Virus record (IMG/VR): IMGVR_UViG_3300009514_000019
Location: 3,845-67,844 of that record
From: a virus
Direction: 5' to 3' (one strand)
Length of the DNA stretch: 64,000 nucleotides
The notes below the pieces were generated by a model, which did no database searches, had not been told where the DNA came from, and was given only the letters and a program-made list of their open reading frames with translations. Shown piece after piece: positions 1,769 to 63,487 of the stretch; within the stretch, counting starts at the first letter, position 1; each line of letters opens with the position of its first letter. The position numbers and the translations under genes are program-made.

Positions 1769-1820
1769 ATTGCATACTCCGAATGAAAAATGTGCAAGTA
1801 CTTGCACTCAGTACTCACAC

Positions 1821-1849
1821 ATTATATCAAAGTTTTAACGATTTTTCAA
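1821..1849 (-). promoter_or_regulatory. Sigma70-type promoter
   Basis: TTGAAA-17 bp-TATAAT with extended TG; a palindrome copy lies 13 bp downstream of the -10. Confidence 0.7.
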
Positions 1850-1850
1850 G

Positions 1851-2306
1851 CTACAAATTCGTATAAATTGGTTCCTGTTTTTCAACTTGTTTTGTTACAG
1901 GATACTCATTAAGTATTTGTTGCCCACCCAGTGCCTTGCCAACTTTTTGAAACATTTTTGCAGCTTCTTTCATTGTTGACATACTTTGTGAGTAACTTTG
2001 CATACCTGTCACGATACTGGCCATTGTGGCATTACTTGTTGTGTTATTGTTTCCTACTTTATTTAATTCCTGCTTATGTTGATATAAGAGTTTTTGACAA
2101 ATCATTAATTGATTGTTGCAAAGTAAATCAACTTCGTCCAATCTAAAGTTTAGCATAGTGACCCATTTTTGATTATGCAATACTCCTTCAATATATATTA
2201 AGTATCCTTTACTCACATCATCATACTTAGTAGATAGTATTAGTTTATGCTTTGCTAAGTACTCATATACTTCTTTCATACTTTTAAAGGTCATAATCAG
2301 GCTCAC
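1851..2306 (-). CDS. Hypothetical protein ending EPIYTNL
   Basis: 151-aa ORF in tight operon context. Confidence 0.7.
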   Translation of the reverse strand: MSLIMTFKSMKEVYEYLAKHKLILSTKYDDVSKGYLIYIEGVLHNQKWVTMLNFRLDEVDLLCNNQLMICQKLLYQHKQELNKVGNNNTTSNATMASIVTGMQSYSQSMSTMKEAAKMFQKVGKALGGQQILNEYPVTKQVEKQEPIYTNL

Positions 2307-2324
2307 TTCGTTCGCCGGTGTTAC

Positions 2325-3047
2325 TTATGGGGCAACCCTACCATTTTTGATAAAAGCAGCATATGTGATAGGCCAACCTTCCGCAAATATTTTTTCACAA
2401 CTCCTAGCCGCCATGTCAATTTCCCACAAGGGGTAGCTTACAAAAGCGGCGTCAGGCTCATGTACCCTTAGCGAAAGGAACCCCATCAACGCCCTTGGAT
2501 TCAAGCTAACCCAACAACTACTATAGATACCCACAGGAAGGCAATCCCTGGCTAATCCAGGGTCAATGTTTAATGCAAGGTTTTTTTCATAAGTTTCATA
2601 GGCAACTGTGTAGGAACCTCGTAAATTATCACACAATGCAGCAAACACATAATCATCCTCACACCGCGTAAATTTAGGCCGACCCGGCTTCCATCCATCC
2701 ACCTTCATCATTGGTCGTTCCCGATCAGGAATGTAAAACACTGGGTCAAGTTGTTTATACCTACCGGATTCCTCATTATATGACGCAATACGATGCCTGT
2801 GCCATTCCCGCCAGACAAAAATTGGTGCCCTCACATAAAAAGTAAGGAAAGAGTGTTCAAATGGAGTACCATGCCTTTGTGCAACAAGATAATTAATAAG
2901 TCCTGCATTACCCTCTTCAGAACCAACCCCTGCAAATTGCAAACAAGCATCCCCACTATTAGACACCTTAGCACTGGCTACAACCATATGGTCCCCGCCA
3001 CACTTCTGAATCAATTGCACATCAATATCCGATTTAAATTCCATCAC
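2325..3047 (-). CDS. thyX: Flavin-dependent thymidylate synthase
   Basis: HGTPFEH and the RHRIASYNEESGRY ThyX signature. Confidence 0.95.
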   Translation of the reverse strand: MMEFKSDIDVQLIQKCGGDHMVVASAKVSNSGDACLQFAGVGSEEGNAGLINYLVAQRHGTPFEHSFLTFYVRAPIFVWREWHRHRIASYNEESGRYKQLDPVFYIPDRERPMMKVDGWKPGRPKFTRCEDDYVFAALCDNLRGSYTVAYETYEKNLALNIDPGLARDCLPVGIYSSCWVSLNPRALMGFLSLRVHEPDAAFVSYPLWEIDMAARSCEKIFAEGWPITYAAFIKNGRVAP

Positions 3048-3080
3048 TAATCTCCATGTTAAGTTATGTAAGTACTTGCA

Positions 3081-3689
3081 CTAGAAAGGACATGTGTATT
3101 CAAGTTCTTCGTTGCCGCCAGCCGCTTGTAGGTACTCCTGTTTTACCTCCCTCCAATATGGACTGTTAGGTGGCACTGTGCCATCCACCATTTTTACACT
3201 GAATTTATCCTTCACTTGCTCGTAGAAGTTACAATCAAGGTGCTCAAACCTGTGGCAATTATGCTTACTACGTTGAATATTCTTTTCAGTCAGTAAAGTG
3301 GGAGGGAACCTTAATGTTTTGGCTACTTCCTTAGTTACACAAACTCCCCCGCTCCTAATATGATTACTTGTTTCAGTTGACCAAAAAGTACCTACCAAAT
3401 CCGCTGTGTTGTACAATTGAAGTAAGTCAGGTCGTAGTGGGAAAAAATCATCAGGACACCAAAATAGCCTATCAAAATCGTTGTTGTCAATAAACCTTTT
3501 AACTACTCCTATATCCATTCCTATGTTAGGATAATACATGCATAAATCCACTTCCTTGTAACAAACATTTTTCCCACCCGTTATTCCAAACCTGAGTTGC
3601 CACCCTGTTGTATTCATTTTTTGCCACACATCATACCACTTTTTGAGGTTATGATATCTATTGTGGCATATCACCAGGCATATATTCAT
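3081..3689 (-). CDS. Putative GT-A-fold glycosyltransferase
   Basis: N-terminal beta-strand, NIGMDIG, and a WCPDD DxD-like motif; sugar-modification neighbourhood. Confidence 0.5.
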   Translation of the reverse strand: MNICLVICHNRYHNLKKWYDVWQKMNTTGWQLRFGITGGKNVCYKEVDLCMYYPNIGMDIGVVKRFIDNNDFDRLFWCPDDFFPLRPDLLQLYNTADLVGTFWSTETSNHIRSGGVCVTKEVAKTLRFPPTLLTEKNIQRSKHNCHRFEHLDCNFYEQVKDKFSVKMVDGTVPPNSPYWREVKQEYLQAAGGNEELEYTCPF

Positions 3690-3715
3690 ATTTCATCCTT
3701 ATGCAAGCACTTGCA

Positions 3716-6203: not shown

Positions 6204-6773
6204 TTATTCCTTGGTAAATATTCGTGTTCCACTTCCATATGAGTGAGTATCGTCAAATGTTTCACATTTCCAGGCTGTTCCCAATCTTTCGAGCATGTCG
6301 CCTGCACTCAAATTATAGTGACCTGGCCACAAACTAGGTGCTGCATAGTTATCCATAACAAGTGTTTTCAATGAGTGCAAGTACTTGCACAATAATAGTT
6401 CAAATATTTGTGAACGATTAAAACCCTCAATTGTGTCAACAGAAATTATTGTCACATTACTTTTATCCAATATTTCAAAGTATTTCAGTATATCCTGTTC
6501 CTGGGATAATATGTTATATGTGATATTTGTGATATCACTATGGATTAATTCATTTAACACTTTTGTTCCCCACTCATCACATGTTTCAACTGCTGTAACA
6601 TAGTGACACCTTTCAGCAAAAAATAATGTGCTGCCACCTGTTCCACATTCTACTACAATATCGTCCTTATTTATATATCTATCAAGTGTGTATACTGCTT
6701 CAGGGACTAACCAAGGAGTGTGGTTACTTAAACAGTGTTTACCTTCCCACCAATTTTCCTCAATTTTCAACAT
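6204..6773 (-). CDS. Class I SAM-dependent methyltransferase-like protein
   Basis: VVECGTGGST motif I, VTAVE, VMDN. Confidence 0.7.
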   Translation of the reverse strand: MLKIEENWWEGKHCLSNHTPWLVPEAVYTLDRYINKDDIVVECGTGGSTLFFAERCHYVTAVETCDEWGTKVLNELIHSDITNITYNILSQEQDILKYFEILDKSNVTIISVDTIEGFNRSQIFELLLCKYLHSLKTLVMDNYAAPSLWPGHYNLSAGDMLERLGTAWKCETFDDTHSYGSGTRIFTKE

Positions 6774-7290
6774 AATTGTCACGCCCACGATTAATTCCAG
6801 GATTGTATTTCTTATTCAATATTTTTCTAACTTCTTCAAAATCACACTCAGCGTTAATGCACTTTACGAAATTTAGCCAAAACCATTCCAAGTCCTCCAA
6901 ACGAACTGTTATTAAATTAGGAACAGTTGTAAGGTATTTATTGACACAATGATAGTACGCCATCGCTACTTTTTCTGTGACTCCATGAGTCAGGAATACT
7001 TGAAAAGCCCATGCCTTTAAATACTCTGGGCATTGCTCAAGCAAGGATTTTATACATGCTTCTTTTTCCCGTACTAAATGAACAAACCTTGCATCAGGAT
7101 ATTTATTTTGAAGCAGTGCAAGTGCTTGTACATTCTGCACCGCTACTTCAATATGGTTATCAGGGTACTCAAAATCATGCACTTGACCTGCAAATGTTTC
7201 ATGTCCACAGGTATAGTTTTTAATTGTTTTACATGCCTGATAAAAAGTACTAGAACCACACCGACCTGTTCCAACAACAAATACCCTCAT
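6760..7290 (-). CDS. Sulfotransferase-like protein
   Basis: VVGTGRCGSST (5'-PSB-like loop), HE, FVHLVR...S. Confidence 0.65.
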   Translation of the reverse strand: MRVFVVGTGRCGSSTFYQACKTIKNYTCGHETFAGQVHDFEYPDNHIEVAVQNVQALALLQNKYPDARFVHLVREKEACIKSLLEQCPEYLKAWAFQVFLTHGVTEKVAMAYYHCVNKYLTTVPNLITVRLEDLEWFWLNFVKCINAECDFEEVRKILNKKYNPGINRGRDNYVEN

Positions 7291-8018: not shown

Positions 8019-8148
8019 ATTATTCCTTTATGCAAGTACTTGCACCGACAGGTCGGCCCCAAAATTTTTTAGGTATAGTTTAACCTAAGATTTGACTATT
8101 TGATATATCTTAGTTGTTTGTGCAACTTTGATGTGCAAGTACTTGCAC

Positions 8149-8231
8149 TACTCAGTTCGCTTCGCTCACGCAACCATCGTGCTCGCATCTGGCTGCATTC
8201 CGCACATCGTGTGCGGTGCTTACGCGAGTAT
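8149..8231 (-). other. GC-rich structured non-coding element (small RNA or origin candidate)
   Basis: Lies in the largest intergenic gap; nested stems; an extended -10 (TGTTATAAT, 8230-8238) directly upstream on the minus strand. Confidence 0.35.
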
Positions 8232-9182: not shown

Positions 9183-10501
9183 AATGACTCCTCGAAACTT
9201 TCGATTGTGGCAGTTTGGATTTTAACAACACTATACCCCATGTTATCATAATCTTCCGACTTACCAATACCGCTACGACCTATGTTTTCAGCTAAATTTA
9301 CCTTGGGGTTTAATCGTATCCAACCCCGTTTATGTAAAACATTCAGCACACATCCTTCCTGGTTTGTTTGTATTGCATTCAGCGAACCCTTCAGTACAGA
9401 TAATTTATTATCGCTGACAGGGTATCCTTCACGTAACTCACAAATAGGAATTGAATCGTACCATTTAAAAATAGTCCTGTGTGGACGCTCATTATACCTG
9501 CTAAATAAATAATCACTTTCATATTTGTACACAATATCCTTTATGTCATCCCAACATTCCCTACTCATTGAGTACGCCCATAAGTTATCTATGTTTACTT
9601 CAACATAGCTACTTGGTGGTTCACTTACATTATACTGCCAACCTTGTACAATGCCAACATTATTTTTGTATTTATTTTTAACCAACCAACTCCACAGGTT
9701 AACCATCATACCCAGGTAATTTGGTGCAACTATAACATCATCTTCAATAATGAACACGTAATCAAAATGCAAATAATCAAATAGTTGCCTACGTGCATCA
9801 ATTATGTTTTTTCCTGCACCAAAATTGCAAGGTCGGCAAACGATATTAGCATTAGGTAAATATTGTTTTAGTATTACAATATGCTGGGCACTGTCTATAT
9901 CTTTGGAAATATCAGTAGGTTTATCCAAAAATAGGAACACTGGCCACTGTTTAGATTCTGGGTTTAGTGCAAGTGCTTGCACACACTTTGTAAAATATTC
10001 CAACCTATTACAAGCAATCAACGCAATACAACACTCAGGGTGAATTGTTTTACCAAAATCAGGAAAATCTTCCCTTATGTCATATTTCGGAACTACATAA
10101 TCTATTGGTATTTCATCAACATAGTTAACAGGTTTGACCTTACTAACACTTTCTTTCATAAGTTTCCTGGGGTTCCCCAATGTTTTCCACACAGGTACAT
10201 TGCTGCCAACCAATATTTGAACATACCCACTAATAAAACTCCTGCCAAACCAACGTAGCTTCTTATCATCGTATGTTAAAATTGCGAAAATTTTACCAGT
10301 GTCGGGTTCAAAGATATTAAGTACTAATTTATTCCTGAGTTTTTCAAAAACCAATGTATATGGGTAAAGTTGGTCTCCCACAACAATATGTGTTTCAGTA
10401 AACCCCACCTCGCCAGTATGTTCATTGGAAGTCCATTCCCAGCTAGTTGTAATAACTGTTTCTGCAAGTAATTGTTCAAACTCTTGAATTTCCATTTTCA
10501 T
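9179..10501 (-). CDS. Glycosyltransferase (GT-A fold) with an extra N-terminal domain
   Basis: IACNRLEY, FLFLD, NFG...NI, IIEDD, NIG..G. Confidence 0.75.
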   Translation of the reverse strand: MKMEIQEFEQLLAETVITTSWEWTSNEHTGEVGFTETHIVVGDQLYPYTLVFEKLRNKLVLNIFEPDTGKIFAILTYDDKKLRWFGRSFISGYVQILVGSNVPVWKTLGNPRKLMKESVSKVKPVNYVDEIPIDYVVPKYDIREDFPDFGKTIHPECCIALIACNRLEYFTKCVQALALNPESKQWPVFLFLDKPTDISKDIDSAQHIVILKQYLPNANIVCRPCNFGAGKNIIDARRQLFDYLHFDYVFIIEDDVIVAPNYLGMMVNLWSWLVKNKYKNNVGIVQGWQYNVSEPPSSYVEVNIDNLWAYSMSRECWDDIKDIVYKYESDYLFSRYNERPHRTIFKWYDSIPICELREGYPVSDNKLSVLKGSLNAIQTNQEGCVLNVLHKRGWIRLNPKVNLAENIGRSGIGKSEDYDNMGYSVVKIQTATIESFEESL

Positions 10502-13329: not shown

Positions 13330-13356
13330 ACTCCTGAGTGCAAGTGCTTGCACTGA

Positions 13357-14815: not shown

Positions 14816-15649
14816 TCATATACCCCTTGTGCAAGTACTTGCACTGATTTTTTGTGCTCGCCATTCCTGTAACTTGTCAATTAAATAATTTTTTGATACC
14901 TTATACAAATCCTTGGTATTATCATGGAATAAACAAGCAGCTTCTTCCGGCTTGAAAATTAGTCCCGGCCAAGATTCCACCCCATAGAATGCCTGGTCTA
15001 CTCTTTTCCAATTCCTTACAAATACACTGGCACATCGAAACCAATAAAAAGTACCTGAATAATGCCACCTATGATTTAAAGGAGTCCTGAAAGTACCATA
15101 CTTCTTAAAGCTACCACATATTCCACGATCCTGTAATGTACCCTTAACTTGTTCCCAATTATTATAAACAGTTTCATACATTACGTCCGCCCAGGTATGG
15201 CAAACTGACTCTGGGTTGGGATGTGTGACTCCTTTACAATGCCCATAGAAAACAACATGGTTAGGATCATCAGTCATAACCATGTTAAGCATTTTTAAAA
15301 AGCTAGTTACCTCACGTAGCCTCTTAACATTTTGAACAAATACAAACTCAATATCTTTACCACCAAAACGATCAAATTTATCAATCACATTATCTGGACA
15401 TATGAAAGGTTTTGTATCCCCATTACCAGCAGTGGCAATTGCCACGATCCTTTTACCATTGAATTGATCAATACTTTTACAAACCTTTTCAATATTCCTA
15501 TCCAACACCCACTCATGCTCCCAACCTAATGGGAGTACATGGTATAACAAATGTTTTACAACATTATCAAAAGGCAAATTACATAAATCAGGGTAATTGG
15601 CATGTGTTTTAAATTGTGACTTACGTACTGCTCCTATCACCCTACTCAT
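14816..15649 (-). CDS. Hypothetical protein, paralog of 13922-14815
   Basis: Same shared motifs. Confidence 0.7.
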   Translation of the reverse strand: MSRVIGAVRKSQFKTHANYPDLCNLPFDNVVKHLLYHVLPLGWEHEWVLDRNIEKVCKSIDQFNGKRIVAIATAGNGDTKPFICPDNVIDKFDRFGGKDIEFVFVQNVKRLREVTSFLKMLNMVMTDDPNHVVFYGHCKGVTHPNPESVCHTWADVMYETVYNNWEQVKGTLQDRGICGSFKKYGTFRTPLNHRWHYSGTFYWFRCASVFVRNWKRVDQAFYGVESWPGLIFKPEEAACLFHDNTKDLYKVSKNYLIDKLQEWRAQKISASTCTRGI

Positions 15650-16155
15650 GCTGTTTCCTTAACTGAGCTTATAGCTTTTTGCACTAATTCTTGTATTGCT
15701 AATTTACTCACGCCGGCTGGCAATAATTTTACTAACCACCTTATCCCAACTTGTTGCCACTTTAAAGCCCTACTGTATATATCATTAACTATATATTCCA
15801 TATTTTCAATACATCCTGTAACACCCCATTTATTCATTTTTTCAGCAAGTGTATAACATTCACTGCATCCTGCAAAACCCACACCCTTTAATATAGAAAT
15901 TAAATTAGTACCTGGACCAGTACTTGCTGGTGCAAGTGCTTGCACTTTAGTATTTCCACCACAGCACCCAACAGTTTTCGGCCTTGAAGTTTGTTGAAAA
16001 ACCACAGCAGTTTTATTTTGTGTGACTACCTTATTAGGTTGAATTTCGATATTACGTTTACTAACTTGTGTTTGATTGCGTGGTGGTAAATTACCTTCAT
16101 CACACAATTTACGAACCTTGCTGCCCACCACAAATTTAGTGCAATCCTCATTCAT
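15646..16155 (-). CDS. Cys-containing hypothetical protein
   Basis: GPGT.L...CSEC...MNKWG..GC; overlaps both neighbours. Confidence 0.7.
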   Translation of the reverse strand: MNEDCTKFVVGSKVRKLCDEGNLPPRNQTQVSKRNIEIQPNKVVTQNKTAVVFQQTSRPKTVGCCGGNTKVQALAPASTGPGTNLISILKGVGFAGCSECYTLAEKMNKWGVTGCIENMEYIVNDIYSRALKWQQVGIRWLVKLLPAGVSKLAIQELVQKAISSVKETA

Positions 16156-19162: not shown

Positions 19163-19193
19163 TCACTAACTCCAAGTGCAAGTGCTTGCACTA

Positions 19194-30739: not shown

Positions 30740-30787
30740 TTCAAACTCTCTTTCTTGTAAACAATCTCACTAGTGCAAGTACTTGCA

Positions 30788-33188: not shown

Positions 33189-33215
33189 TATACACTCCTT
33201 GTGCAAGTACTTGCA

Positions 33216-36202: not shown

Positions 36203-36230
36203 AGTATCCTCCTTTGTGCAAGTACTTGCA

Positions 36231-37353: not shown

Positions 37354-37387
37354 TTACCCTCCTAGTATTAATATGCAAGTACTTGCA

Positions 37388-38056: not shown

Positions 38057-38123
38057 AACTAAACCCTTGTGATAAATACAACCTTGTAGTTACGAGTGCA
38101 AGCACTTGCACTTTCAAGATTGT

Positions 38124-39521: not shown

Positions 39522-40895
39522 TTACGACTTGATTCCAAACAAGCCGTTGAAACAATCATTCTTGCCCGCTGGCTTTGGCGTAGGTGTGCCTTCGGTGCGT
39601 GCAGGAACAACTGGAGTAATTCCAGCCACACTCTTCTTAACTGTTTCCAACACGCCCGCAAGTTCTGATAATTGTTTTTGAACAATCATCGGAACTTCGG
39701 GTGTTGGTTCAACCACAGGAGGGGTAACAGGGGCCGTCATTTTAGTAACAAACTCCCCGAAATTTTGTGCAAGTGCTTGCACTTGTCCAGTCAAGGTTTC
39801 CAAAGTAGGTGTAACTTTCGCCATAATTGCTTCAGTGGCTTTAGTCACAACCTCGTCCATGTTAAGAACAGGAGGAGTTGCTTCCGGGGTAGCCGGAGGA
39901 GTTACAACAGGAGCGACTTCTGGGGTCACATCCTTTGTAACTGGAGTTGTTGGAGTATCAACAACTGTCGTAGGGGTAGCGGGATCGGGCATTGTAGTCT
40001 CCTTTGATTTGGCTACAGTTTGTAAGAAAACATCTTTCTCATCCTCAGATAAAGTTAACGTAGCCGAGGATTGTTGAGGCTTTCCTAAAACTAAGTTTGC
40101 CCCGTCGGCCATTTTAACTACTAATAATCCATCCTCATCTAATTCTCTCATACTATCATACGCATATATTGTAGATTCGCTTTCAACAATAGTAAAATTA
40201 TCCACCTTATCCCTAGTTAACTGCTCCTCAACATCCTTTTGCTCATACTTTGCTTTATCAAATTGGTATGAATGGATTGCATCTTTAGCAACAATAAAGG
40301 AACTCCCAACATTATTAGGAGCAGTTACTAAAGATATTTCTACAAGGTCTATATATGAATAACTCTTGTATGTTGATTTAGTTTTCTCATCATAAGTATA
40401 GGAGGGCCGAGACATCCCCCTCCATGAAAAACCAGAAAGCTCACCAGACTTAACCATGCTTATCACATCTGGATCACTGATCCGTATGAAAGCATATAAG
40501 CCTCGTGAGCCTGTGCCTAGGTTGGGGTTACGTTCTTTTGGAAACGTATCAATTTCTTTCTTAGCATTTACATCCCACACTGACCACATTCCTGGTTTAT
40601 CTGAAGTTTTCAATTTAACTTCATGTAAACCAAGCGGCACTCCTACCCCCACCCTGTTACCCATCTTATTAACCCATAAAGCATGGTTAACAAGTATGGC
40701 AGGTTGTGCCATATATGATGGAATATCAAAGGCGGAGGGACTTACTAGTTCTTTATCCCTGTCTGCAATTTGAACAGAAACAAAGCCTTTAATGATGAAA
40801 TTTTCATCTGTGTTTTTTGGTGTGGCAATAAAGAACTTATTACTAGGTTGATAATTTACGAGATCAATTAAATCTGTAGGCATATTTTCCTCCAT
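39522..40895 (-). CDS. Prohead protease fused to a scaffold domain
   Basis: DRDKE, NH, SGELSGFS, EISLV..PNN; Pro/Thr-rich linker and helical C-terminus. Confidence 0.85.
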   Translation of the reverse strand: MEENMPTDLIDLVNYQPSNKFFIATPKNTDENFIIKGFVSVQIADRDKELVSPSAFDIPSYMAQPAILVNHALWVNKMGNRVGVGVPLGLHEVKLKTSDKPGMWSVWDVNAKKEIDTFPKERNPNLGTGSRGLYAFIRISDPDVISMVKSGELSGFSWRGMSRPSYTYDEKTKSTYKSYSYIDLVEISLVTAPNNVGSSFIVAKDAIHSYQFDKAKYEQKDVEEQLTRDKVDNFTIVESESTIYAYDSMRELDEDGLLVVKMADGANLVLGKPQQSSATLTLSEDEKDVFLQTVAKSKETTMPDPATPTTVVDTPTTPVTKDVTPEVAPVVTPPATPEATPPVLNMDEVVTKATEAIMAKVTPTLETLTGQVQALAQNFGEFVTKMTAPVTPPVVEPTPEVPMIVQKQLSELAGVLETVKKSVAGITPVVPARTEGTPTPKPAGKNDCFNGLFGIKS

Positions 40896-41154: not shown

Positions 41155-41182
41155 ACTTATTTCCTTAGTGCAAGCACTTGCA

Positions 41183-42973: not shown

Positions 42974-42998
42974 ATGCTCCTTTGTGCAAGTACTTGCA

Positions 42999-46840: not shown

Positions 46841-47428
46841 TTACTTTACTCCTAATAGGCTAAAGAATTCTGCTTTTGCAGTACCTTCCTTAAACGCTCC
46901 GATAACACTGCTTGTCACCATCTCACCAGTGGATCGAATTCCCCTGCACCTCATGCAACTATGTGTAGCTTTTACAACCACTATAACACCTAATGGATCG
47001 AGTACTTCGTTTATTGTGTCCCGTATTTGTTGGGTGAGTCGCTCTTGTATTTGGAGTCGATGTGCAAGTACTTGCACTGTCCGAGGAAATTTACTTAGTC
47101 CCGCCACCTTTCCATTCGGAATATACCCAATATCAACTGACCCCCAAAAAGGCATTAAATGGTGCTCACATAAGCTACTAAAAGGAATGTTCCGAATAAT
47201 AACAAGGTCATCCGAGGCTGCTTCAAATGTGACTTTAAGTGGTGCTTTTGGGTCTTGTAAGTACCCTTCGGTTAATTCACGAAGTGCTTTCAAGAAACGC
47301 AGCGGTGTTTTTTCAATATCTGGACTATCTTTCAGCCCTAGTGATTGAAAAAACTTTTTAAATACACTAGTGAAATAAAACTCAAACGAGCTATCTTTAC
47401 CTAGCGAAGGTGAAGCATCTTGTGCCAT
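46841..47428 (-). CDS. folE: GTP cyclohydrolase I
   Basis: SLCEHHLMPF, GLSK..R, RLQIQERLT, HSCM..RG. Confidence 0.95.
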   Translation of the reverse strand: MAQDASPSLGKDSSFEFYFTSVFKKFFQSLGLKDSPDIEKTPLRFLKALRELTEGYLQDPKAPLKVTFEAASDDLVIIRNIPFSSLCEHHLMPFWGSVDIGYIPNGKVAGLSKFPRTVQVLAHRLQIQERLTQQIRDTINEVLDPLGVIVVVKATHSCMRCRGIRSTGEMVTSSVIGAFKEGTAKAEFFSLLGVK

Positions 47429-48064: not shown

Positions 48065-48066
48065 AA

Positions 48067-48513
48067 TTATCCTTCCCAAGATGCAAAACAATTGTCCGTT
48101 TCATGCACAACAACCTTGATGACTTTTACTTTATATTGTGCAAGTGCTTGCACAAACTCATCATATGTTCCAAGAAATTTAGCAATATTCTCAGCCGTGG
48201 GATTTTCGTGCATCAAGTAAACTTTTTGAACAACTTCCTTAGTGTGTTCAGTAAAGTGCAATAACGCATCTTTCGCTGATTTATCTTGCCAATTCAATAT
48301 AAATCCATGATCGAAGTTTTTTTGAATCCAAGGATCGTATACTTGTTTAATTACACTGAAATCAACAACCCTACCAATTTCATCTAAGTGCCCGTATGTT
48401 TGTGCAGTTATTTCAACATTATAATTATGCCCATGCAGATGGGAGCACTTTGATTCATGCCCCATCAGGCGATGGCCTGCACTAAAATGTAGCTTCCTCG
48501 TGCAAGTTATCAT
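48067..48513 (-). CDS. queD: 6-carboxy-tetrahydropterin synthase
   Basis: FSAGHRL, C..LHGHNY, VDF, DH, PTAENIA, ET. Confidence 0.93.
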   Translation of the reverse strand: MITCTRKLHFSAGHRLMGHESKCSHLHGHNYNVEITAQTYGHLDEIGRVVDFSVIKQVYDPWIQKNFDHGFILNWQDKSAKDALLHFTEHTKEVVQKVYLMHENPTAENIAKFLGTYDEFVQALAQYKVKVIKVVVHETDNCFASWEG

Positions 48514-49305: not shown

Positions 49306-50602
49306 TCCACATTCCTTTTGCTACTTGGAAAATTTCCCCAAAAAGTTGTTCGTCATTTCCATATTTAGGTCGATTAATGATATAATCAGGTACGCATACT
49401 ATTTCCGCTAGTTTTTTAAGTGTGGCTTTCTCCGACTCAACTACACAACTCATTACATATTTAGCAAACTGATAACCCAAGTAAGGCATACGATACTCTT
49501 TGCCGAACGCCATTCCGCCCCTATCAACTCGGTCAAGGTTAATTGCCCGCATGGACTTAATACAGGATTGTCGTTCCACTCCCCTTGAAATAGAACTTAA
49601 ACCTCTGAATTGTGGGTATCCTGCAAATAGCTCATCAGCCCCTTCACCGGAAATGATTACTTTTGATTTTGCAAACTGTGCAACATACCAATTCCTGATG
49701 TATCCCCGGAACTTTACTTCATTTGGTATTGGGTCTTCCAAATGATATAACATCTTTGGCAAATCCTTTAGTATTTGCTCCTTGCTTACAACCCATATTT
49801 CATGCTTGATGTTATTTTCTTTTGCAAATTTTGCTGCATACCAAAGGTCATCCCCTCCAACAAAACTTACAGTATGTGCATTTATTTTTAACCCCAAATC
49901 CTTCATCATTTTTACTAAAACACTACTATCTAAACCCCCACTTAATGCAACATCATACCCTACCTCAGTGTGTGAACACCTACTTTTCACACTATCCCTT
50001 AGCAATGCCCAAGCAACTTCCTCATTAAAAAGTCCTGAGTTTATTGATAACTCCCTACCTGTGTCCGAACTTATGCTATCATATTTACCATCCAATGCAA
50101 ATACTTTCACTTGATTTGGAAATAATTCAATAGCTTTGCAGCCTTGTGCAAGTGCTTGCACTCGTTTTTCCGAACTAATAATCAATCGGTATTTTGAGTC
50201 CCACCCATAGTACAACGGACAGATTCCCCATTGATCTCGTAACATTGTAACACAATTCTTTTGTGTGTCAATGATTACTATTGCATACTGACCTTCTAAT
50301 AGGTGTTGAAAGTTCCTACCAGTTTTATATGCCGCTACAATGAAGTCAAGTTCTTTATCGAAGCCATTTGCCTTTGTATTGTATATTTCACCGTTAAACA
50401 ATACTATTAAATTGTCCTTGACAAAGGGCTGGTTTGAGTATTCAGACAGGTCATTGATAGCCAATCGGCAATGCCCTGCTGCAAACTTTTTAGTAATGTA
50501 GGTAGCATGGTAATCTGGCCCCCTATGTTTTATTGAAGCAAGGAGGGTATCAATTTCAATATTATTTGTTGTTTCCCCGATAATACATACTATTCCACAC
50601 AT
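49295..50602 (-). CDS. Asparagine-synthetase-B-like glutamine amidotransferase
   Basis: MCGI, HRGPD, RLAI, QP, NGEIYN, LSGGLDSS, SGEGADELFAGY. Confidence 0.88.
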   Translation of the reverse strand: MCGIVCIIGETTNNIEIDTLLASIKHRGPDYHATYITKKFAAGHCRLAINDLSEYSNQPFVKDNLIVLFNGEIYNTKANGFDKELDFIVAAYKTGRNFQHLLEGQYAIVIIDTQKNCVTMLRDQWGICPLYYGWDSKYRLIISSEKRVQALAQGCKAIELFPNQVKVFALDGKYDSISSDTGRELSINSGLFNEEVAWALLRDSVKSRCSHTEVGYDVALSGGLDSSVLVKMMKDLGLKINAHTVSFVGGDDLWYAAKFAKENNIKHEIWVVSKEQILKDLPKMLYHLEDPIPNEVKFRGYIRNWYVAQFAKSKVIISGEGADELFAGYPQFRGLSSISRGVERQSCIKSMRAINLDRVDRGGMAFGKEYRMPYLGYQFAKYVMSCVVESEKATLKKLAEIVCVPDYIINRPKYGNDEQLFGEIFQVAKGMWNVN

Positions 50603-50603
50603 G

Positions 50604-51230: not shown

Positions 51231-51357
51231 CGTATTTTCATCCAAATTGTGTAAAACACTTTATATAAGATTATGGATAGCTCAACTACTTGTGCAAATG
51301 TTTCCAATATAACCTGCATGTTAAACTCCTTTATATGTGCAAGTACTTGCACTAACC

Positions 51358-51831: not shown

Positions 51832-51867
51832 ACCATTCCCTACATTAACGTGATGCAAGTACTTGCA

Positions 51868-52269: not shown

Positions 52270-52274
52270 ATTTT

Positions 52275-53033: not shown

Positions 53034-53037
53034 AAAT

Positions 53038-53184
53038 TTATTCCTTAGTGCAAGTGCTTGCACACGCAGTTTTGAGCCAAGTTAAAATACGAACGAGGAG
53101 GCTGGGGATTTCCTGGAATGTGAAATCTTTTGGAACCTCTACAGTAACGAACCTTAATTTACCTAAAGGTATGTGAACTTTCAT
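53038..53184 (-). CDS. 48-aa hypothetical protein (below the ORF-track cutoff)
   Basis: MKVHIPLG...CASTCTKE fills the gap between the ParB-like and DpdA-like genes. Confidence 0.45.
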   Translation of the reverse strand: MKVHIPLGKLRFVTVEVPKDFTFQEIPSLLVRILTWLKTACASTCTKE

Positions 53185-53187
53185 AGC

Positions 53188-53868
53188 TCATTCTTCCTGG
53201 TCCATATTATTATTTGTAAATTTTTCACAAATAATTGCTAAACACTCTGCCGGTGCAATACTAAAGTCAGACATTTCAGTTCGTAGCTTATTTAATGCCT
53301 GATCTATAAATGGTTTTTGTGATAGATTAAATTGTAGGGTCAATCCACGGCTGTCTAAGTCTTTGTCACCTTTTGCTTTTTCTGGTGGCGTGCCTAGTGC
53401 ATTGTCATCCGCTTCTGGTAAATGCATCTCTGCTGACAGCAAGGGGGCTAATTCATGCTCCTGGAATCCTGTTAAAGCTAGTAAATTACTATCTTCAGCG
53501 TATTGTAATTCCTGCAAAGCTAATGTTAATTTACTGTAGTCAAAATCAGACAACCTACCTGTTTTGTTAAGTGTGATCGCAAGTGCTTTTACCTGATCCT
53601 CATCACCTTCTACGGCATGTGCCCAAAATGTGGACCAACCCTTTTCTTTCATTTTACGAAGGCGACCATTGCCTCCAATCACCTTCTTATTCTTCAAATC
53701 CACCACAAGTGTTTCGACTTGCCCAAATTGGTCTAAACTATTGCCTGTTGCTGTTAAATCTACCTCACTATGTGCATTTACATTATCCTCATCCTCAACA
53801 AAGTCAGCAACATTAAATTGCTGCGGGTCATGTACCTTAAATCCGGGTAAACTAGGTAAACCTTTCAT
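53188..53868 (-). CDS. ParB/Srx N-terminal-domain protein
   Basis: N.N.H, SL.QFGQVE.LVV, VIGGNGRL, LALTGF..EL. Confidence 0.8.
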   Translation of the reverse strand: MKGLPSLPGFKVHDPQQFNVADFVEDEDNVNAHSEVDLTATGNSLDQFGQVETLVVDLKNKKVIGGNGRLRKMKEKGWSTFWAHAVEGDEDQVKALAITLNKTGRLSDFDYSKLTLALQELQYAEDSNLLALTGFQEHELAPLLSAEMHLPEADDNALGTPPEKAKGDKDLDSRGLTLQFNLSQKPFIDQALNKLRTEMSDFSIAPAECLAIICEKFTNNNMDQEE

Positions 53869-54409: not shown

Positions 54410-54816
54410 TATAGTGGCCTCGTTATTTTTTGTTGCACACCCGTTCCTGGCAATATGATTTTAGATTGTTCTTGTTTTTGTGATTGCTGCAATGCACCTA
54501 TAATATTGTCGGTGTGCTCCTCAAGTCCTTTGTGCAAGTACTTGCACAAACCTTCCTTCCATTGCCACAAAGCATCGGGCCGATCCAGCCTTGGAATTGG
54601 CTTAGGATGTTCTGCAAGGAACTCCCACATTTGAGTTAATTTGAATATTTCTAAATCCATTTGTACCTGCATAACACGTTGTGTTACCGCAAGTTGTGCT
54701 ATAAATGCAGGGTTTACTACTCCTTGTTGATTTGCTGGTAACTTTACATTTGCTAATAGAGGTACAATTTTTTCCATACAGGCATCAACAATGTTATCCA
54801 TTTCCATACTAATCAT
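54409..54816 (-). CDS. Hypothetical protein
   Basis: 135-aa ORF, tightly packed. Confidence 0.7.
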   Translation of the reverse strand: MISMEMDNIVDACMEKIVPLLANVKLPANQQGVVNPAFIAQLAVTQRVMQVQMDLEIFKLTQMWEFLAEHPKPIPRLDRPDALWQWKEGLCKYLHKGLEEHTDNIIGALQQSQKQEQSKIILPGTGVQQKITRPL

Positions 54817-55149: not shown

Positions 55150-55743
55150 TTATTGTCCTAGTGTTTTATTCATATCCTTTATAAATTCATCACAAAATGC
55201 CTCAAGTGCTCCATTAAAATTGTCATCAAAATAATTAGTAACTGAGTAATCAGCTAACCTAGTTACTAGTCCATCACTTTCCCTAAAAACACCTTTGTTT
55301 GAATTGATTTTGAGTGTGCTTACGTGACCTTCAAACACATTGTGAATGTATTCATATTCACAATCGAATCTATAATCACTTATTACCGGAACATACAAGG
55401 CGTGTCCATAACTGCCTTGAACAATGTCATCACAACATTGTTTAATCCAAAAAGTTGGTTTCAATGTCCTAAAAAATTCACCAACTTTAATCCATAAGTC
55501 AACAACATTCCCTACCCCGACTAAAGGAAGTGCTTCATCCCTCAATTCAGGATGTATTTCATACTCCAGTCCTGACCTTGTGTTAAAGTACTTCCTACAA
55601 AATACTTTAAGGGGAAGTGCTATCGAAAATTGTTGTGCTTTAATACCTTTTTGTGCAAGTACTTGCACTATTTTTTGGGCTGCATAGTCCTTTCCCACGC
55701 GGGATTTATCTGCATGTATCATCAAAGGCCATGTAATATTCAT
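55150..55743 (-). CDS. Deoxynucleoside monophosphate kinase-like protein
   Basis: KSRVGKD P-loop, A.PLK, VISDYRF..E. Confidence 0.75.
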   Translation of the reverse strand: MNITWPLMIHADKSRVGKDYAAQKIVQVLAQKGIKAQQFSIALPLKVFCRKYFNTRSGLEYEIHPELRDEALPLVGVGNVVDLWIKVGEFFRTLKPTFWIKQCCDDIVQGSYGHALYVPVISDYRFDCEYEYIHNVFEGHVSTLKINSNKGVFRESDGLVTRLADYSVTNYFDDNFNGALEAFCDEFIKDMNKTLGQ

Positions 55744-56784: not shown

Positions 56785-57416
56785 TTTTTTCCTAGTTCAT
56801 TAAATAAAGACCTAGCAACGACTCCCCAAACTTTTCCAACTAACTTGCCTGCTTCAAAAAAGGGTGCTCCAGATACACCATATTGGGCACACATTTGATC
56901 TAGCTTTATGTCCAATTCACCAAGTTTATCAACTAATACTATCTCCCGATACAAGTAGCTTAGTATATTAGGTTTGTTCTTAGCTACATTATCCATGTAT
57001 TTACTACGCTTGCCGGCTACCTCAAATACCTGCTCAATGATACTGAATTGTTTGTTCCGAAGGTCGAGGAAATTTTCATTTTGTCGAATACTAATGTATG
57101 CTTGCGTTATTTGAATGCTCTGCCTAATGTTGTTTAAGTATTGCTCAATATGTTTTTTATCTACAATACTGTTCATTCGCAACTCGTCCACTACCTCATA
57201 TACCTTACTTCCAATTATTTGGTTACGTCGTTCCCTAATTATTCGAGTATTTTTTGGCAACCTTGTTGTGCAAGTACTTGCACTAATTTTATCTGCCCCA
57301 TTTACAATTATGTAAGGTTTTTTCCTAAGTTGTTCACATACCTGGTATAAGATATGCTTAGTTGTTTTTTGTTGTATTCCTACAACTACCATTATTTGTA
57401 TCCTTTCAAACTTCAA
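56781..57416 (-). CDS. Hypothetical basic protein
   Basis: 211-aa ORF. Confidence 0.65.
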   Translation of the reverse strand: MKFERIQIMVVVGIQQKTTKHILYQVCEQLRKKPYIIVNGADKISASTCTTRLPKNTRIIRERRNQIIGSKVYEVVDELRMNSIVDKKHIEQYLNNIRQSIQITQAYISIRQNENFLDLRNKQFSIIEQVFEVAGKRSKYMDNVAKNKPNILSYLYREIVLVDKLGELDIKLDQMCAQYGVSGAPFFEAGKLVGKVWGVVARSLFNELGKK

Positions 57417-59506: not shown

Positions 59507-59985
59507 ATAGCACTTCCTTGTTTCATCAGGGCAGTTGCATTTTTGTCACATATCTCATTCCAATATACTCCTTGATGCCCTCGTACATGGACCACTTGTA
59601 TGTTAGGTGTCCACCATTTTAGTAATTCAATCCACAAATCAATATTGCATACTTTCTTTCCAGTAGAGTTTTTCCATCCATTTTGCCTCCAAGTATTACT
59701 CCAATCAGTTAATCCTTTTTGAACATATTGGGAGTCTGTTACAATAAATTTAGGAGTAACATCCTTTTGACTACATGTTTTCAAACCCTCAAGCACTGCC
59801 ATCATTTCCATGATATTGTTACTAACATCATTATGTAATCCTGCTTTACCAAATAGTAATGTACCATGTTTTAAAGTATGTTTTATTGAAGTTACTTCAA
59901 TTTCAACACAAACAAATGCGTAAGCTCCTTTTCGATCAGTGTTGTTATTACAACCACCATCAGTGTAAAGTGCAAGTACTTGCAT
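59503..59985 (-). CDS. rnhA: Ribonuclease HI
   Basis: YTDGG, NNIMEM, TDSQYV, W..NGWK, N.DLW, HVRGH, NEICD; TAATG overlap start inside a palindrome. Confidence 0.92.
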   Translation of the reverse strand: MQVLALYTDGGCNNNTDRKGAYAFVCVEIEVTSIKHTLKHGTLLFGKAGLHNDVSNNIMEMMAVLEGLKTCSQKDVTPKFIVTDSQYVQKGLTDWSNTWRQNGWKNSTGKKVCNIDLWIELLKWWTPNIQVVHVRGHQGVYWNEICDKNATALMKQGSAI

Positions 59986-61129: not shown

Positions 61130-61487
61130 GATATTTCTTTCTATAATGCTTACTTCTCAAATACCTTTTCAGGTCCGTTGCAAAACTATTTTCCGCTATC
61201 CAAGGTAAATATTCATTGTCACGTTTTGCTATGTTTCCTACCTGTATTCCAGCATACTTTCCATATGGCATTTCAGTTTTCTCAAATGCAAGTGCTTGCA
61301 CCTCCATCATTTCATCCACATTGTCAACTACATGCTTATTTATTTTCTCAGCCGCGTAGTCAGCAATTACCTGCCAAAACCTACTACTGTCCATTAAGGT
61401 AATGTCAAATGACTCTTGAGCTAAATCAAGTACTGCTTCTGCTTCTTTCCGTGCTCTTATGTTCCTTTGTATTTGTTCACTTGTCAT
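61122..61487 (-). CDS. Hypothetical protein with an MPYGKY.G...YL.W motif
   Basis: Motif of the small MPFGKY domain. Confidence 0.6.
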   Translation of the reverse strand: MTSEQIQRNIRARKEAEAVLDLAQESFDITLMDSSRFWQVIADYAAEKINKHVVDNVDEMMEVQALAFEKTEMPYGKYAGIQVGNIAKRDNEYLPWIAENSFATDLKRYLRSKHYRKKYHG

Positions 61488-61831
61488 GTTATTACCTCAT
61501 ATACAAATACTTTTAATCCTTCTCTTTTAGCAATATCAATCATATGTTTAGTCCCTTTGCTTTTTCCATTCCAAACAGCTATTAACGCTTCGGCATTTTT
61601 AGCCATTTCCTCATTCCTTTTATATCCGGCTGATTTTCCATAGGTGTCCCATTGAGCTAAAAATACTTCACAAGGTATATTTAATTCATCAGCTAATGCT
61701 TCCCCATGCCTATCCACTCCCCTTGCCCCACCACTGATTATACAGGTAATATTCCAACCAGCATACTTCACAGCTTGTTTTACATCTTTATATGTTATCC
61801 CATCCCTGCTGCCAGCTATTATTGTCCTCAT
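61484..61831 (-). CDS. YspA/SLOG-family nucleotide-binding protein
   Basis: IIAGSR, ISGGARGVD, AGYKRN..MA, WNG.S.GT..MI. Confidence 0.85.
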   Translation of the reverse strand: MRTIIAGSRDGITYKDVKQAVKYAGWNITCIISGGARGVDRHGEALADELNIPCEVFLAQWDTYGKSAGYKRNEEMAKNAEALIAVWNGKSKGTKHMIDIAKREGLKVFVYEVIT

Positions 61832-62142
61832 TTACATTTCCTAGTTACTGTTGTACTAAGTTTGAAACTTCTTCCTTGATCTATTACTTTATTACGTGCT
61901 ATATCAGCATTTATTTTATCAACCAAATCCTGTTTGTTCCTATACAATGTCATAGGCCGGCCATTTATCATTATAGTAACAAATTTACTGCTTGGCCTAC
62001 TGCTTGTCCTACTGCTTATGTTTGGCCTAGTAGGTGTACATATTCCGTTACATGCTTTTTCAACATCGGTTCGTTTAATAGCTACTTTCAAGTCAGCTTG
62101 GCACACACTACTAAGTGCAAGTACTAGCACAAACGCTTTCAT
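61828..62142 (-). CDS. Hypothetical secreted protein
   Basis: Signal-peptide-like MKAFVLVLALSSVCQA. Confidence 0.6.
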   Translation of the reverse strand: MKAFVLVLALSSVCQADLKVAIKRTDVEKACNGICTPTRPNISSRTSSRPSSKFVTIMINGRPMTLYRNKQDLVDKINADIARNKVIDQGRSFKLSTTVTRKCK

Positions 62143-62318
62143 TTTGTTTCTCCTTTTGGAATTTTACGAACTACTACATGAAACTCCGCATCAAGTGTTT
62201 GTAGATGCCCTAATATGTAACTAGCTACTGAACTCATTCCAGCAGTAGGTCCATTTGTATACCGAACAACGATTTCTTGATCAGCCGCTTCAGTATCAAT
62301 TTCATCTGTTTCATTCAT
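62139..62318 (-). CDS. Small hypothetical protein
   Basis: GGAGG RBS, ATG at 62318. Confidence 0.55.
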   Translation of the reverse strand: MNETDEIDTEAADQEIVVRYTNGPTAGMSSVASYILGHLQTLDAEFHVVVRKIPKGETK

Positions 62319-62488
62319 CGTTCTTCCTCCCATATGCAAGTACTAGCACTACTGATAAGTATTTCATATTTGCTTCCAATGCTTCAGGAAATTACTACAC
62401 CAAAGTTGTCCAATTTTAACAATCCCTATCAATAAAATCAACTAAATAAACAATTTAACTACGCTTTTAGCCGCAAATAGATAATTAG

Positions 62489-62770
62489 TCATAAATTAAC
62501 CCAAATCTCCTGAATTTTTGAACTTTCTGGCTTCAATAACATTAAATTCTTATTATGTTCATTTACATAGTATTCACATAATTCAGGAGTATCATATTCA
62601 TATACTAACAACCACTTATTGTCCTTATCATATACATAGTATGCTCGTTTCCTTTCAACATAACTAGCATTATCCCTTACCGCAACACTCCACCTCCTAT
62701 TACCTTCTGTATTTAATAAACATCCTTGCACCCATTTAACACCTTTAAACTTTTCCCTATTATCTACCAT
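62489..62770 (-). CDS. Hypothetical protein ending EIWVNL
   Basis: 93-aa ORF. Confidence 0.65.
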   Translation of the reverse strand: MVDNREKFKGVKWVQGCLLNTEGNRRWSVAVRDNASYVERKRAYYVYDKDNKWLLVYEYDTPELCEYYVNEHNKNLMLLKPESSKIQEIWVNL

Positions 62771-63003
62771 ATTTTCATTCCGTATGTGTCGTTAAACATC
62801 CTACTGAATTCACCAGTACCAATAGGTAAACTTAGTAGTTTATCTAGCTTACTAAACTCGTTGACTTTTGGTACAGGATCACCATCAACAAACCTAGCTA
62901 ACTCTTTATTTATTTTACGTTTACTTCTATTTGTATCAACCCCGACCACTTTATTTTCTTTTTTAATGTATTTACTCATAGATTTACCCAAATTGTGTTC
63001 CAA
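62764..63003 (-). CDS. Small hypothetical protein
   Basis: ORF overlapping both neighbours; likely start MSKYI. Confidence 0.55.
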   Translation of the reverse strand: MEHNLGKSMSKYIKKENKVVGVDTNRSKRKINKELARFVDGDPVPKVNEFSKLDKLLSLPIGTGEFSRMFNDTYGMKIW

Positions 63004-63302
63004 ATATTTATTTGTTCAACACATTCAAACACACTGCTGAACACAGTTACCTTTTCATGTACTTTCCCGCCCACTATATTCCTTTCAAATACTACCTCAT
63101 CATTTTGAATGTATAACGCTTTATTGTTTTTAACCAAACAATATGCATTTCCACACTCATGTATATTCACATCAAAATGTGTTATTATTTGCTTTCCTAT
63201 CCACATAGTTTGCTCCGGTGCAAGTACTTGCACTGCCCCGCTATCGTTACACGCGAAGCATCCGTGTCCCTCACAATTTTCACATATTTTATAATGTGCC
63301 AT
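62976..63302 (-). CDS. Zn-ribbon hypothetical protein ending TIWVNL
   Basis: CENCEG.GC..C..SG; start placed at MAHY. Confidence 0.6.
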   Translation of the reverse strand: MAHYKICENCEGHGCFACNDSGAVQVLAPEQTMWIGKQIITHFDVNIHECGNAYCLVKNNKALYIQNDEVVFERNIVGGKVHEKVTVFSSVFECVEQINIWNTIWVNL

Positions 63303-63487
63303 TTGTTGCCCCTGTGTGCCCCGCATATCCCTTGTGTAGTTTGTGCCCCTCTTTGCCCCACATACTTTAATGCAAGTACTTGCACTCATTGCTATTTTGT
63401 GTTCATCACTTGCCCCCCATTTTGCCTCACATACAAAAAAATTAAAAATAAAAATATATCAAAGTTTGCAGTACACCCACAGCACAT

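Follow-up and report, generated by a model that had tools for sequence, protein, structure and literature searches.

A dispersed, operator-like 16-bp palindrome shared across phage lineages

Short DNA sites that recur many times on a single replicon are known from several systems. Cluster A phages such as L5 carry some 25-35 repressor sites, the stoperators, over a genome of about 50 kb, mostly in short intergenic gaps, where they block elongation; stoperators are asymmetric, oriented with transcription, and read by a phage immunity repressor that diverges between subclusters. In the ParB-type multi-site systems (KorB-OB of RK2 with 12 sites, Noc-NBS with about 70, and parS), the readers are ParB-fold proteins that can spread. 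LacI/GalR-type operators follow the consensus TG-N-AA-N-CG-N-TT-N-CA, a palindrome of 14-16 bp, and cre sites that lie inside genes act as roadblocks. The closest precedent for the element described here is a 17-bp dyad repeat of Cluster O mycobacteriophages, TGTTCGG-NNN-CCGAACA, whose function is left unexplained in the section of PMC4351075 that describes it. According to that section, Corndog-like Cluster O phages carry 34 copies per genome of about 70 kb, invariant and with a variable spacer; intergenic positions account for about 14 of them, 10 are close to 5' ends, and 10-11 fall within genes. The repeats are conserved among relatives and are thought to bind a dimeric protein (PMC4351075). 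Here we analyse a palindrome of 16 bp that recurs along 64,000 nucleotides of viral DNA (hereafter the window), namely bases 3845-67844 of the 67,844-bp IMG/VR record IMGVR_UViG_3300009514_000019, which we call G000 (CheckV completeness 56%). An initial annotation, made from the letters of the window, knew of no dense long palindrome in a phage; the Cluster O phages provide one.

The window contains 35 exact copies of TGCAAGYRCTTGCA, and none arose in 100 dinucleotide-preserving shuffles. Six more copies carry one mismatch and five carry two, the whole record holds 37 exact copies, and the density in the window phage is about one site per 1.8 kb. The 35 exact and six one-mismatch copies are those of the initial annotation, found again at the same positions. 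When the 43 copies in the record that have no more than one mismatch are read on the coding strand, a conserved unit of 16 bp emerges, G-TGCAAG-YR-CTTGCA-C, in which position -1 is G in 42 of 43 copies and position +1 is C in 35. Position -2 is A in 31 of them, without a mirror downstream. The centre is always a pyrimidine-purine step (TA 23, CA 14, TG 6), and CG is found in none of the 43, as the annotation had remarked. There is no excess of isolated half-sites: CTTGCA has 65 copies, of which about 43 belong to sites, where 50 would be expected.

Shuffling synonymous codons in 81 open reading frames (ORFs) yielded a mean of 0.45 copies and never more than 3 in 300 trials, against 22 in the real ORFs (taken from their longest starts). 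The constraint is therefore on nucleotides and not on peptide, a conclusion the initial annotation had drawn while suggesting a codon-preserving shuffle; the readings it had given, V-Q-(V/A)-L-A, C-K-Y-L-H and A-S-(T/A)-C-T, and the genes that contain them were recovered as well. It had also kept an artefact in mind. An assembly artefact is ruled out, because an IMG/VR contig that was assembled independently, L016 (G and L numbers denote IMG/VR or other records and contigs compared in the analysis), covers the initial 5,766 bp of the record, with their sites, at 100% identity. Bases 1-4146 of this contig prolong the left end of the record by 4,146 bp, and two more sites are found there. No cultured relative of the window phage was detected by megablast of 12 kb, and in a tblastn search with the capsid the best matches were below 30% identity.

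Comparison of related phages shows that the sites are kept by purifying selection. Contig L009 and G001 share 70.7% nucleotide identity over 5.3 kb, and both sites in this interval, at the TerL/portal junction and in FolE, are identical at 16 of 16 positions while their flanks have diverged (chance probability 0.707^32, about 1.5e-5). Five phages have the site at the TerL/portal junction, and three phages and L009 have the one in FolE; other sites turn over between relatives.

The VQVLA segment of FolE aligns without a gap to the solved GTP cyclohydrolases of the PDB, and orthologues that lack the site align gap-free, with other residues in its place, for QueD, QueC, three scaffold positions and w29079. 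Since both site-less orthologues and FolE homologues align in this way, the sites were written by substitution, which the initial annotation had favoured and had proposed to check on orthologues. It had seen no transposase; none was seen here either, nor any signature of a MITE, a miniature transposable element with inverted repeats. For the dNMP kinase the orthologue alignment is ambiguous between substitution and insertion. QueD shows a 6-residue gap near the site when set against the PDB in a very weak alignment, which we set aside because close orthologues show none.

The annotation had further suggested a search in related phages. Exact-pattern scans of IMG/VR and follow-up counts, in which contig totals are lower bounds, placed the motif in at least 11 distinct contigs beyond that of the window (12 records, two of them the same phage), from several metagenomes. 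The motif-bearing records (G001-G008, G011, G013, G014 and G015) belong to two or three lineages and range in GC content from 39 to 60%. Two are complete: G005 (93 kb, GC 55%) with 31 sites, and G006 (101 kb, with terminal repeats) with 56 sites of the form TGCAA-N3-4-TTGCA. We counted 26 sites in G001 (58.5 kb), 14 in G002 (33 kb), 10 in G003 (59.5 kb, GC 60%), 12 in G007 (27 kb), 19 in G008 (98 kb, 85% complete; G012 is the same phage at 99.9% identity) and 15 in G011 (60 kb), while G004 (50 kb) has 13 exact copies and 27 with at most one mismatch; the partial records G013, G014 and G015 have 7, 3 and 4. G001, G002, G004 and G006 are syntenic, distant relatives of the window phage (25-71% amino-acid identity). 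Apart from structural genes, the only features common to the lineages are a ParB-N domain, a DnaG-like primase and a DnaB-like helicase. No bacterial host with multiple copies was found among the 119 bacterial stretches listed. G009, a metagenome-assembled genome of Tannerellaceae, has tandem arrays of 23-bp period whose unit contains AGCAAGCGCTTGCA, the same palindrome core; one array (L343:5175-5723) has 24 copies and similar ones lie on at least 10 contigs, clustered, unlike the phage arrangement.

Among these phages the centre of the site varies, and CG is the centre that most of them use. The CG-centred form TGCAAGCGCTTGCA dominates in G001 (22/26), G003 (11/11), G004 (24/27) and G005 (31/31), and G002 has only CA or TG centres. 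GCGC is avoided genome-wide in G000 (5 observed against 55 expected) and in G002 (1 against 31), the phages without CG centres, and the absence of CG from the window is attributed to this avoidance. Likewise, AGTACT is avoided in G001 (0 against 10.7 expected), G004 (1 against 11.4) and G005 (0 against 14.4), all of which lack TA centres. Restriction avoidance thus determines the centre dinucleotide, whereas the twelve bases around it stay fixed, and this constancy beside a shifting centre is in its own right evidence for the importance of the site. Many six-base restriction palindromes are missing from each of these phages. In the window, GTGCAC, AAGCTT and AACGTT have no copies against 22, 14 and 13 expected; GGATCC is nearly absent from seven of nine phages tested (G003 shows no avoidance and the G008 expectation is uninformative), and G008 has 2 copies of CTAG against 196 expected.

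Other phages depart from the window form in other ways. The half-sites of G006 are parted by one or two bases of any kind, and 30 of its 56 sites are of the 13-bp form; this form, TTGCAAG-N-CTTGCAA with any centre base, is as common there as the 14-bp form (L301-L306). In G005, G007, G008 and G011, one inner base varies without compensation. What stays constant across the phages is a pair of subsites centred on TGCA, at a distance of 9-10 bp. The sites show an orientation bias on the coding strand: TCGC outnumbers GCGA 17 to 3 in G007 and G008 together, centre T outnumbers A 17 to 6 in G006, and CA outnumbers TG 25 to 10 among the TGCAA-N3-4-TTGCA sites of G000-G002.

All long ORFs of the window are on the minus strand, and its GC skew is strongly negative. 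The initial annotation had described the sites as lying in genes, and this stands for the tape-measure gene (three sites), the protease/scaffold, FolE, QueD, AsnB-like, dNMP kinase and RNase H genes and others, most of them in the frame that reads V-Q-(V/A)-L-A; it had overlooked the sites, about 40%, that occupy gaps between a stop codon and a Shine-Dalgarno (SD) sequence. In G000, 16 of 38 sites (TGCAA-N3-4-TTGCA) lie 3-35 nt upstream of an SD and start, against 4.8 for random positions, and the same preference is found in G001 (10/26 against 3.8) and G002 (6/14 against 2.0); opposite-strand starts stand in this relation to sites 0-1 times in these three phages, and never in G000. In many cases the TAG stop of the upstream gene adjoins the palindrome, and the site itself is the intercistronic spacer. 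No such preference was found in G006 (11/56 against 7.3 at random), G007 (3/12 against 3.0) or G008 (1/19 against 3.3), and junction placement is therefore not a defining property.

The sites are also evenly spaced. In nine of nine genomes the gaps between sites are more even than random (coefficient of variation 0.45-0.73 against 0.87-0.98), with P<=0.03 in each and a Fisher combined P of 1e-16; six genomes have intervals of about 1.8-2.4 kb, and the remaining three have intervals of 3-6 kb. The sites do not coincide with the best sigma-70-like promoters.

What could read such sites? By its sequence, the motif is a LacI/GalR-type operator, cre-like, whereas the initial annotation had matched it to nothing known. 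The CG-centred motif of the relatives fits the palindromic form TG-N-AA-N-CG-N-TT-N-CA, and numerous bacterial genomes contain a single copy of the exact CG-centred 16-mer. Of the 119 bacterial loci listed, 29 have a LacI-family ORF no more than 1.2 kb away, in most cases with the site at the 5' end of that ORF; for control positions taken from these loci the rate is 6.4%, a figure that gives a rough base rate only and tempers the argument to that extent. In two members of these LacI-family ORFs, Pfam confirmed the LacI helix-turn-helix (HTH) and Peripla_BP domains. We found the 14-mer palindrome in no paper, and the literature searched gave no match for CcpA cre sites in phage genomes. The sole literature match of the 12-mer is a CcpA ChIP-seq study, whose table of bound sites includes some that contain GCAAGCGCTTGCA and TGCAATCGCTTGCA (PMC8359418). 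The second of these is the variant used by G007, G008 and G011.

Tentatively, we read the palindromes as a genome-wide array of operator-type protein-binding sites, for which a host LacI-family regulator is the likeliest reader. It would be a host protein because the LacI HTH family PF00356 had no match in five phage records at E<=1, with controls matched in 14 of 14 genomes. The proposal of the initial annotation that the sites bind a dimeric protein thus fares well, in that a symmetric protein-binding site remains the best reading of the motif. Each copy would be a high-affinity, two-fold-symmetric site of the LacI/GalR-operator (cre-like) type on double-stranded DNA, whose two half-sites, both centred on TGCA, are separated by roughly one turn of the helix. 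Selection maintains about one evenly spread site per 1.8 kb, in tiny intergenic gaps where possible and otherwise in codons that tolerate it. The array would probably act genome-wide, through stoperator-like roadblocks or silencing, or as a sink that titrates the protein, rather than as promoter operators, and a host LacI-family reader would couple the phage programme to the sugar or catabolite state of the host.

A fuller scenario is one that we regard as doubtful in its entirety. Several large siphovirus lineages would have written an evenly spaced array of host LacI-family operators into their DNA, codons included. The host sugar or catabolite repressor would then either gate the phage programme through roadblocks, producing a nutrient-dependent pause, or be soaked up by phage DNA as it replicates, so that host carbon catabolism is derepressed with no phage gene involved, and each phage would have retuned the centre to dodge local restriction enzymes.

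Several observations weigh against a host LacI-family reader. None of the 43 sites of the window record has the central CG, the step that LacI-family operators normally carry, and the 13-bp spacing of G006 with any centre base (30/56) fits a rigid LacI-type dimer poorly. A single host regulator has to be assumed to be shared by phages of 39-60% GC. Finally, the orientation bias on the coding strand hints at directional or single-stranded reading.

The alternative that survives best keeps the same protein-binding logic and assigns the reading to a protein of the phage itself, encoded at 53188..53868 on the minus strand; we hold it to be possible, though rather unlikely. In its model, an N-domain of ParB/Srx-like NTPase fold is joined through a disordered linker to a C-terminal tail of strand-helix-helix form, which is ribbon-helix-helix-like and predicted to dimerise. 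CopG binds a pseudosymmetric 13-bp element with two TGCA motifs, of which GCAC is the contacted core, in the part of PMC3413123 that deals with its operator. By analogy, two tail dimers would sit on the two TGCA subsites of the palindrome, which has the same TGCA-N5/6-TGCA layout, and such an arrangement would tolerate the mixture of 13- and 14-bp forms in G006. The ParB-like heads could close into a clamp that spreads from the sites and coats the genome, as with KorB or Noc.

The evidence for the fold is as follows. The protein has a ParB-like PHROG match (E 1e-24), its full-length model has a pLDDT (predicted local distance difference test score) of 84.6, and Foldseek aligned the N-domain with pNOB8 ParB-N, ParB-CDP, Noc and KorB (E 6e-6 to 4e-3). 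The C-terminal 61 residues, predicted as a homodimer, scored 0.51, against 0.00 for the best control. This mark is reached by 20 of 30 solved homodimers and by one of 23 single chains; three runs agreed on at least 88% of contacts with a partner pLDDT of at least 70, and the pass may reflect likeness to solved folds. In the predicted dimer, strand 174-181 pairs antiparallel with itself, as in the ribbon-helix-helix topology. The protein belongs to a family of 24, its gene lies upstream of the terminase genes, and homologues with similar tails occur in G001, G002 and G006 and, from reading of the sequences, also in G004 and G005. In the homologue of G006, G replaces a Q that is invariant in the other homologues, on the strand predicted to face DNA.

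However, the fold search with the tail alone gave no match at E<1 (best TM scores 0.53-0.54 for TCP domains and 0.49 for ParD2), and the tail has no Pfam or PDB sequence match. The model of 53188-53868 contains no HTH DNA-binding domain. The profile of the ParB-like protein matched none of five other motif records (G007, G008, G011, G013 and G015), and among 28 IMG/VR loci with ParB-N relatives the motif was present in only one, which is G002. Searches for a ribbon-helix-helix-like tail in other lineages with hmmsearch and hhalign returned nothing significant (hhalign probability at most 4%); the CopG-family profile PF01402 also gave 0 of 5 records, in an insensitive search that misses the protein of G006 as well. 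Such rapid divergence of the protein sits badly with a 12-base core that is invariant across lineages. The ParB-like partner suggested by the initial annotation is thus retained as a rival reader within this lineage and does not follow the motif beyond it.

The gene 53188-53868 lies directly upstream of a DpdA-like gene, which is followed by an ORF of no known type, a methyltransferase fragment, QueC-like and AsnB-like genes and three small unannotated ORFs, and then by QueD, QueE, FolE, two TerS-like genes and an intein-bearing TerL. The 7-deazaguanine cluster (46841-53868; DpdA-like, QueC-like, AsnB-like, QueD, QueE, FolE) thus starts after the ParB-fold gene, and the pairing of this gene with DpdA recalls the bacterial DpdB-DpdA pair. 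In G006, the ParB-like gene is close upstream of TerS, and homologues of the 7-deazaguanine cluster were not found there.

In a second alternative the element would work as an RNA or single-stranded DNA hairpin, an intercistronic stem-loop beside the ribosome-binding site that an RNA-binding protein or nuclease would read for mRNA processing, stability or translation control. The junction excess in G000-G002 and the coding-strand orientation bias speak for it, as do an invariant stem around a variable centre of 3-4 nt, the 13-bp forms of G006 included, and the folding of a 6-bp stem and tetraloop at -7.1 kcal/mol. On the other side, G006, G007 and G008 have no junction preference, and intragenic sites show conservation at orthologous codons. 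Site-specific complementarity does not extend past +-1, with depletion at +-2 and no excess pairing from +-2 to +-6. The half-site variants of G005 are not compensated (ACGC 11, GCGT 10, ACGT 0), and the form of G006 folds weakly, at -3.8 kcal/mol. We therefore consider a hairpin unlikely.

About equally improbable, in our view, is a signal for DNA transactions, in which evenly spaced marks for recombination, module exchange, priming or packaging would be read by the replication or packaging machinery. Even spacing across nine genomes would suit such marks; a DnaG-like primase and/or DnaB-like helicase is encoded by G000, G001, G005, G006, G007, G008 and G011, and portal, capsid and tape-measure proteins are the families that recur across lineages. 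However, primase and helicase are generic in large siphoviruses, and lone half-sites show no enrichment by the counts given above. To our knowledge, moreover, replication and packaging machines do not read palindromes of 14-16 bp, which counts against this alternative. In its favour again, the repeats of Cluster O flank indels in the genomes treated in the relevant part of PMC4351075.

A mobile miniature element, a product of gene conversion, or an assembly or adapter artefact would account for a core that is identical in every exact copy, and is nonetheless scarcely credible given gap-free alignments at all informative coding sites, no flanking repeats past +-1, an independent assembly at 100% identity, and at least 11 distinct contigs from several metagenomes.

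Three more specific candidates were set aside. Insertion of a MITE or of a repetitive extragenic palindromic (REP) element was rejected on the gap-free alignments of FolE, QueD, QueC, scaffold (three positions) and w29079, with no flank pairing past +-1, and a phage-encoded LacI-type regulator on the result for PF00356 (0/5 phage records). The Dam-type methyltransferase and DpdA-like enzyme, also named as partners by the initial annotation, are unlikely ones, because the DpdA and queuosine-gene profiles of the lineage found no match (E<0.01) in G005, a motif phage whose 93-kb genome is complete. In addition, no 7-deazaguanine family appears among 25 of 42 Pfam families listed for the 139 ORFs of G005, and the DpdA, FolE, QueC, QueD and QueE families were found, among the records compared, only in G000-G002. 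The target of Salmonella DpdA/B lies in a 12-bp palindrome according to the passage concerned in PMC10164549, which we take as an analogy only.

Within the window, the exact copies at gene junctions are arranged as follows. A TA-centred site at 1793..1806 is intercistronic, with an SD (GGAG) and ATG about 27 nt downstream on the minus strand. The one at 3702..3715 adjoins the TAG stop of ORF 3716-4330 and ends 12 nt before the ATG of 3081-3689; 8031..8044 precedes the ATG of 7287-8018 by 12 nt, and 8134..8147 is in the non-coding gap 8019-8403. At 13339..13352 the site lies 4 nt past the stop of 13357-13941, with an SD and ATG downstream, and at 14830..14843 it forms the final codons of 14816-15649 (frame 2) and precedes the ATG of 13922-14815 by 14 nt. 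The site at 19177..19190 occupies the junction of 19194-19613 and 18041-19162, and G001 has the same junction site. Three more adjoin the stop of the preceding gene: 30774..30787 (TAG of 30788-31249; the start of 30251-30739 is 34 nt downstream), 36217..36230 (stop of 36231-36500; 14 nt before the start of 35936-36202) and 37374..37387 (TAG of 37388-38056; 20 nt before the next start). The site at 33202..33215 comes immediately before the SD and ATG of 32904-33206, and that at 38097..38110 precedes the start of 37388-38056 by 40 nt, within non-coding DNA downstream of the capsid gene.

In the packaging and 7-deazaguanine regions, 41169..41182 adjoins the TAG stop of the portal gene, and 42985..42998 is the junction of the TerL stop and portal start, shared with G001, G002, G004, G006 and L009. 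The site at 51338..51351 lies 6 nt past the stop of the methyltransferase ORF, with an SD and ATG downstream; 51854..51867 adjoins the TAG of 51868-52335, before that ORF (51358-51858); and 53049..53062 precedes the DpdA-like gene, 125 nt past the stop of the ParB-like gene. A site at 63219..63232 lies either in ORF 62976-63389 or before an internal SD and ATG, and 63371..63384 is at the 5' end of the same ORF.

The remaining exact copies are within genes. The tape-measure gene 19661-28693 has three, at 20927..20940, 23330..23343 and 24053..24066, all in frame 1, the frame also used at 15931..15944 (gene 15646-16155) and 61287..61300 (gene 61122-61487). CKYLH is read in frame 0 at 6376..6389 (ORF 6204-6788, an uncertain gene call) and at 54533..54546 (gene 54409-54816). 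VQALA is encoded at 9968..9981 (gene 9179-10501, residues 174-178; G001 has a site at the same position) and at 39768..39781 (protease/scaffold gene 39522-40895, residues 372-376, where site-less orthologues are gap-free), and VQVLA at 47063..47076 (FolE residues 124-128; the same position in G001, G002 and L009, gap-free against PDB FolE). The site at 29255..29268 reads CASACT in gene 29079-29501, with G002 having it at the same position, and that at 48139..48152 covers QueD residues 121-125, where G001 and G002 are gap-free with other residues. The others are at 50147..50160 (asparagine-synthase-like gene 49295-50602), 55654..55667 (dNMP kinase gene, residues 26-30), 57269..57282 (ORF 56781-57416, frame 2, whose true start is uncertain) and 59971..59984 (RNase H residues 18-22, adjoining the TAA of the upstream ORF). 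The one-mismatch copies lie at 3067..3080 (intercistronic), 7117..7130 (gene 6760-7290), 23255..23268 (tape-measure gene), 32653..32666 (gene 32186-32899), 62116..62129 and 62335..62348.

Further features of the window were noted. In an otherwise packed genome two non-coding stretches are unusually long, 8019-8403, which contains two palindrome sites, and 38111-38525, which comes after the capsid gene. A perfect TTGACA-17-TATAAT lies upstream of QueD, plus two 11/12 matches, all on the minus strand; these promoter-like matches (48532-48560, 63488-63516 and 57671-57699) and a terminator-like hairpin of 15-bp stem and T run (63578-63546, minus strand) coincide with no palindrome site. TerL (42999-45803, minus strand) has 934 residues, whereas the orthologues of G001 and G004 have about 560, and it includes a LAGLIDADG-type domain (Pfam E 3e-7), so that it probably contains an intein or a homing-endonuclease insertion. 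The tape-measure ORF 19661-28693 is unusually long at 3,010 residues, and relatives match parts of it only. ORF 4340-5554, which belongs to the tail or late region, encodes C-methyltransferase domains (Methyltransf_13/14/23) of the kind usual in enzymes that modify sugars.

Dispersed phage palindromes were seen before, in Cluster O, and never explained; the present case adds handles on them. Because its sequence is that of a canonical bacterial repressor operator, it names a concrete class of reader to test, and it provides an example of a functional site re-tuned by restriction avoidance. If a host regulator reads the sites, the virus would have a novel means of sensing or rewiring the metabolism of its host through DNA sites alone; if the ParB-like, ribbon-helix-helix protein reads them, they would belong to a new kind of phage chromosome-coating system.

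How, then, does the array compare with known systems? The HIP1 octamer GCGATCGC has no copy in G000 or in seven of eight other phages examined, and five in G003. With the CopG operator the window site shares a TGCA-N6-TGCA layout, and G006 a TGCA-N5/N6-TGCA layout, with GTGCA...TGCAC; there, however, one operator serves one promoter, and the ribbon-helix-helix of the phage protein is a prediction. As in KorB, Noc and parS systems, palindromic sites of 13-16 bp are dispersed on a replicon, and the window encodes a ParB-fold protein. Unlike them, the density here is far higher, the protein model lacks an HTH, and site and protein do not co-occur outside the lineage. Unlike Cluster A stoperators, the window site is symmetric and conserved across lineages; no repressor or integrase was found among about 47 of about 85 window ORFs scanned with Pfam or PHROGs, on a contig that is 56% complete.

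With LacI/GalR operators and the cre sites of CcpA the likeness lies in the palindrome layout and in the exact CG 16-mer at bacterial lacI-family genes, and near-identical sequences are bound by CcpA in vivo in the table of PMC8359418. The differences are dozens of near-identical copies on one small phage genome, no cognate regulator gene found, a window without central CG, and the 13-bp spacing of G006. Cluster O comes closest in arrangement, with more than 30 inverted repeats of variable spacer, between and inside genes, conserved in relatives, although both the sequence and the phage group are unrelated. Unlike the Cluster O repeat, the window motif crosses lineages and GC classes, has a centre that tracks restriction avoidance and a demonstrably even spacing, and equals a class of bacterial operator. 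What is new here is accordingly a motif shared across lineages, under measurable selection and with measurable spacing, with a restriction-tuned centre and, by sequence, a bacterial operator identity.

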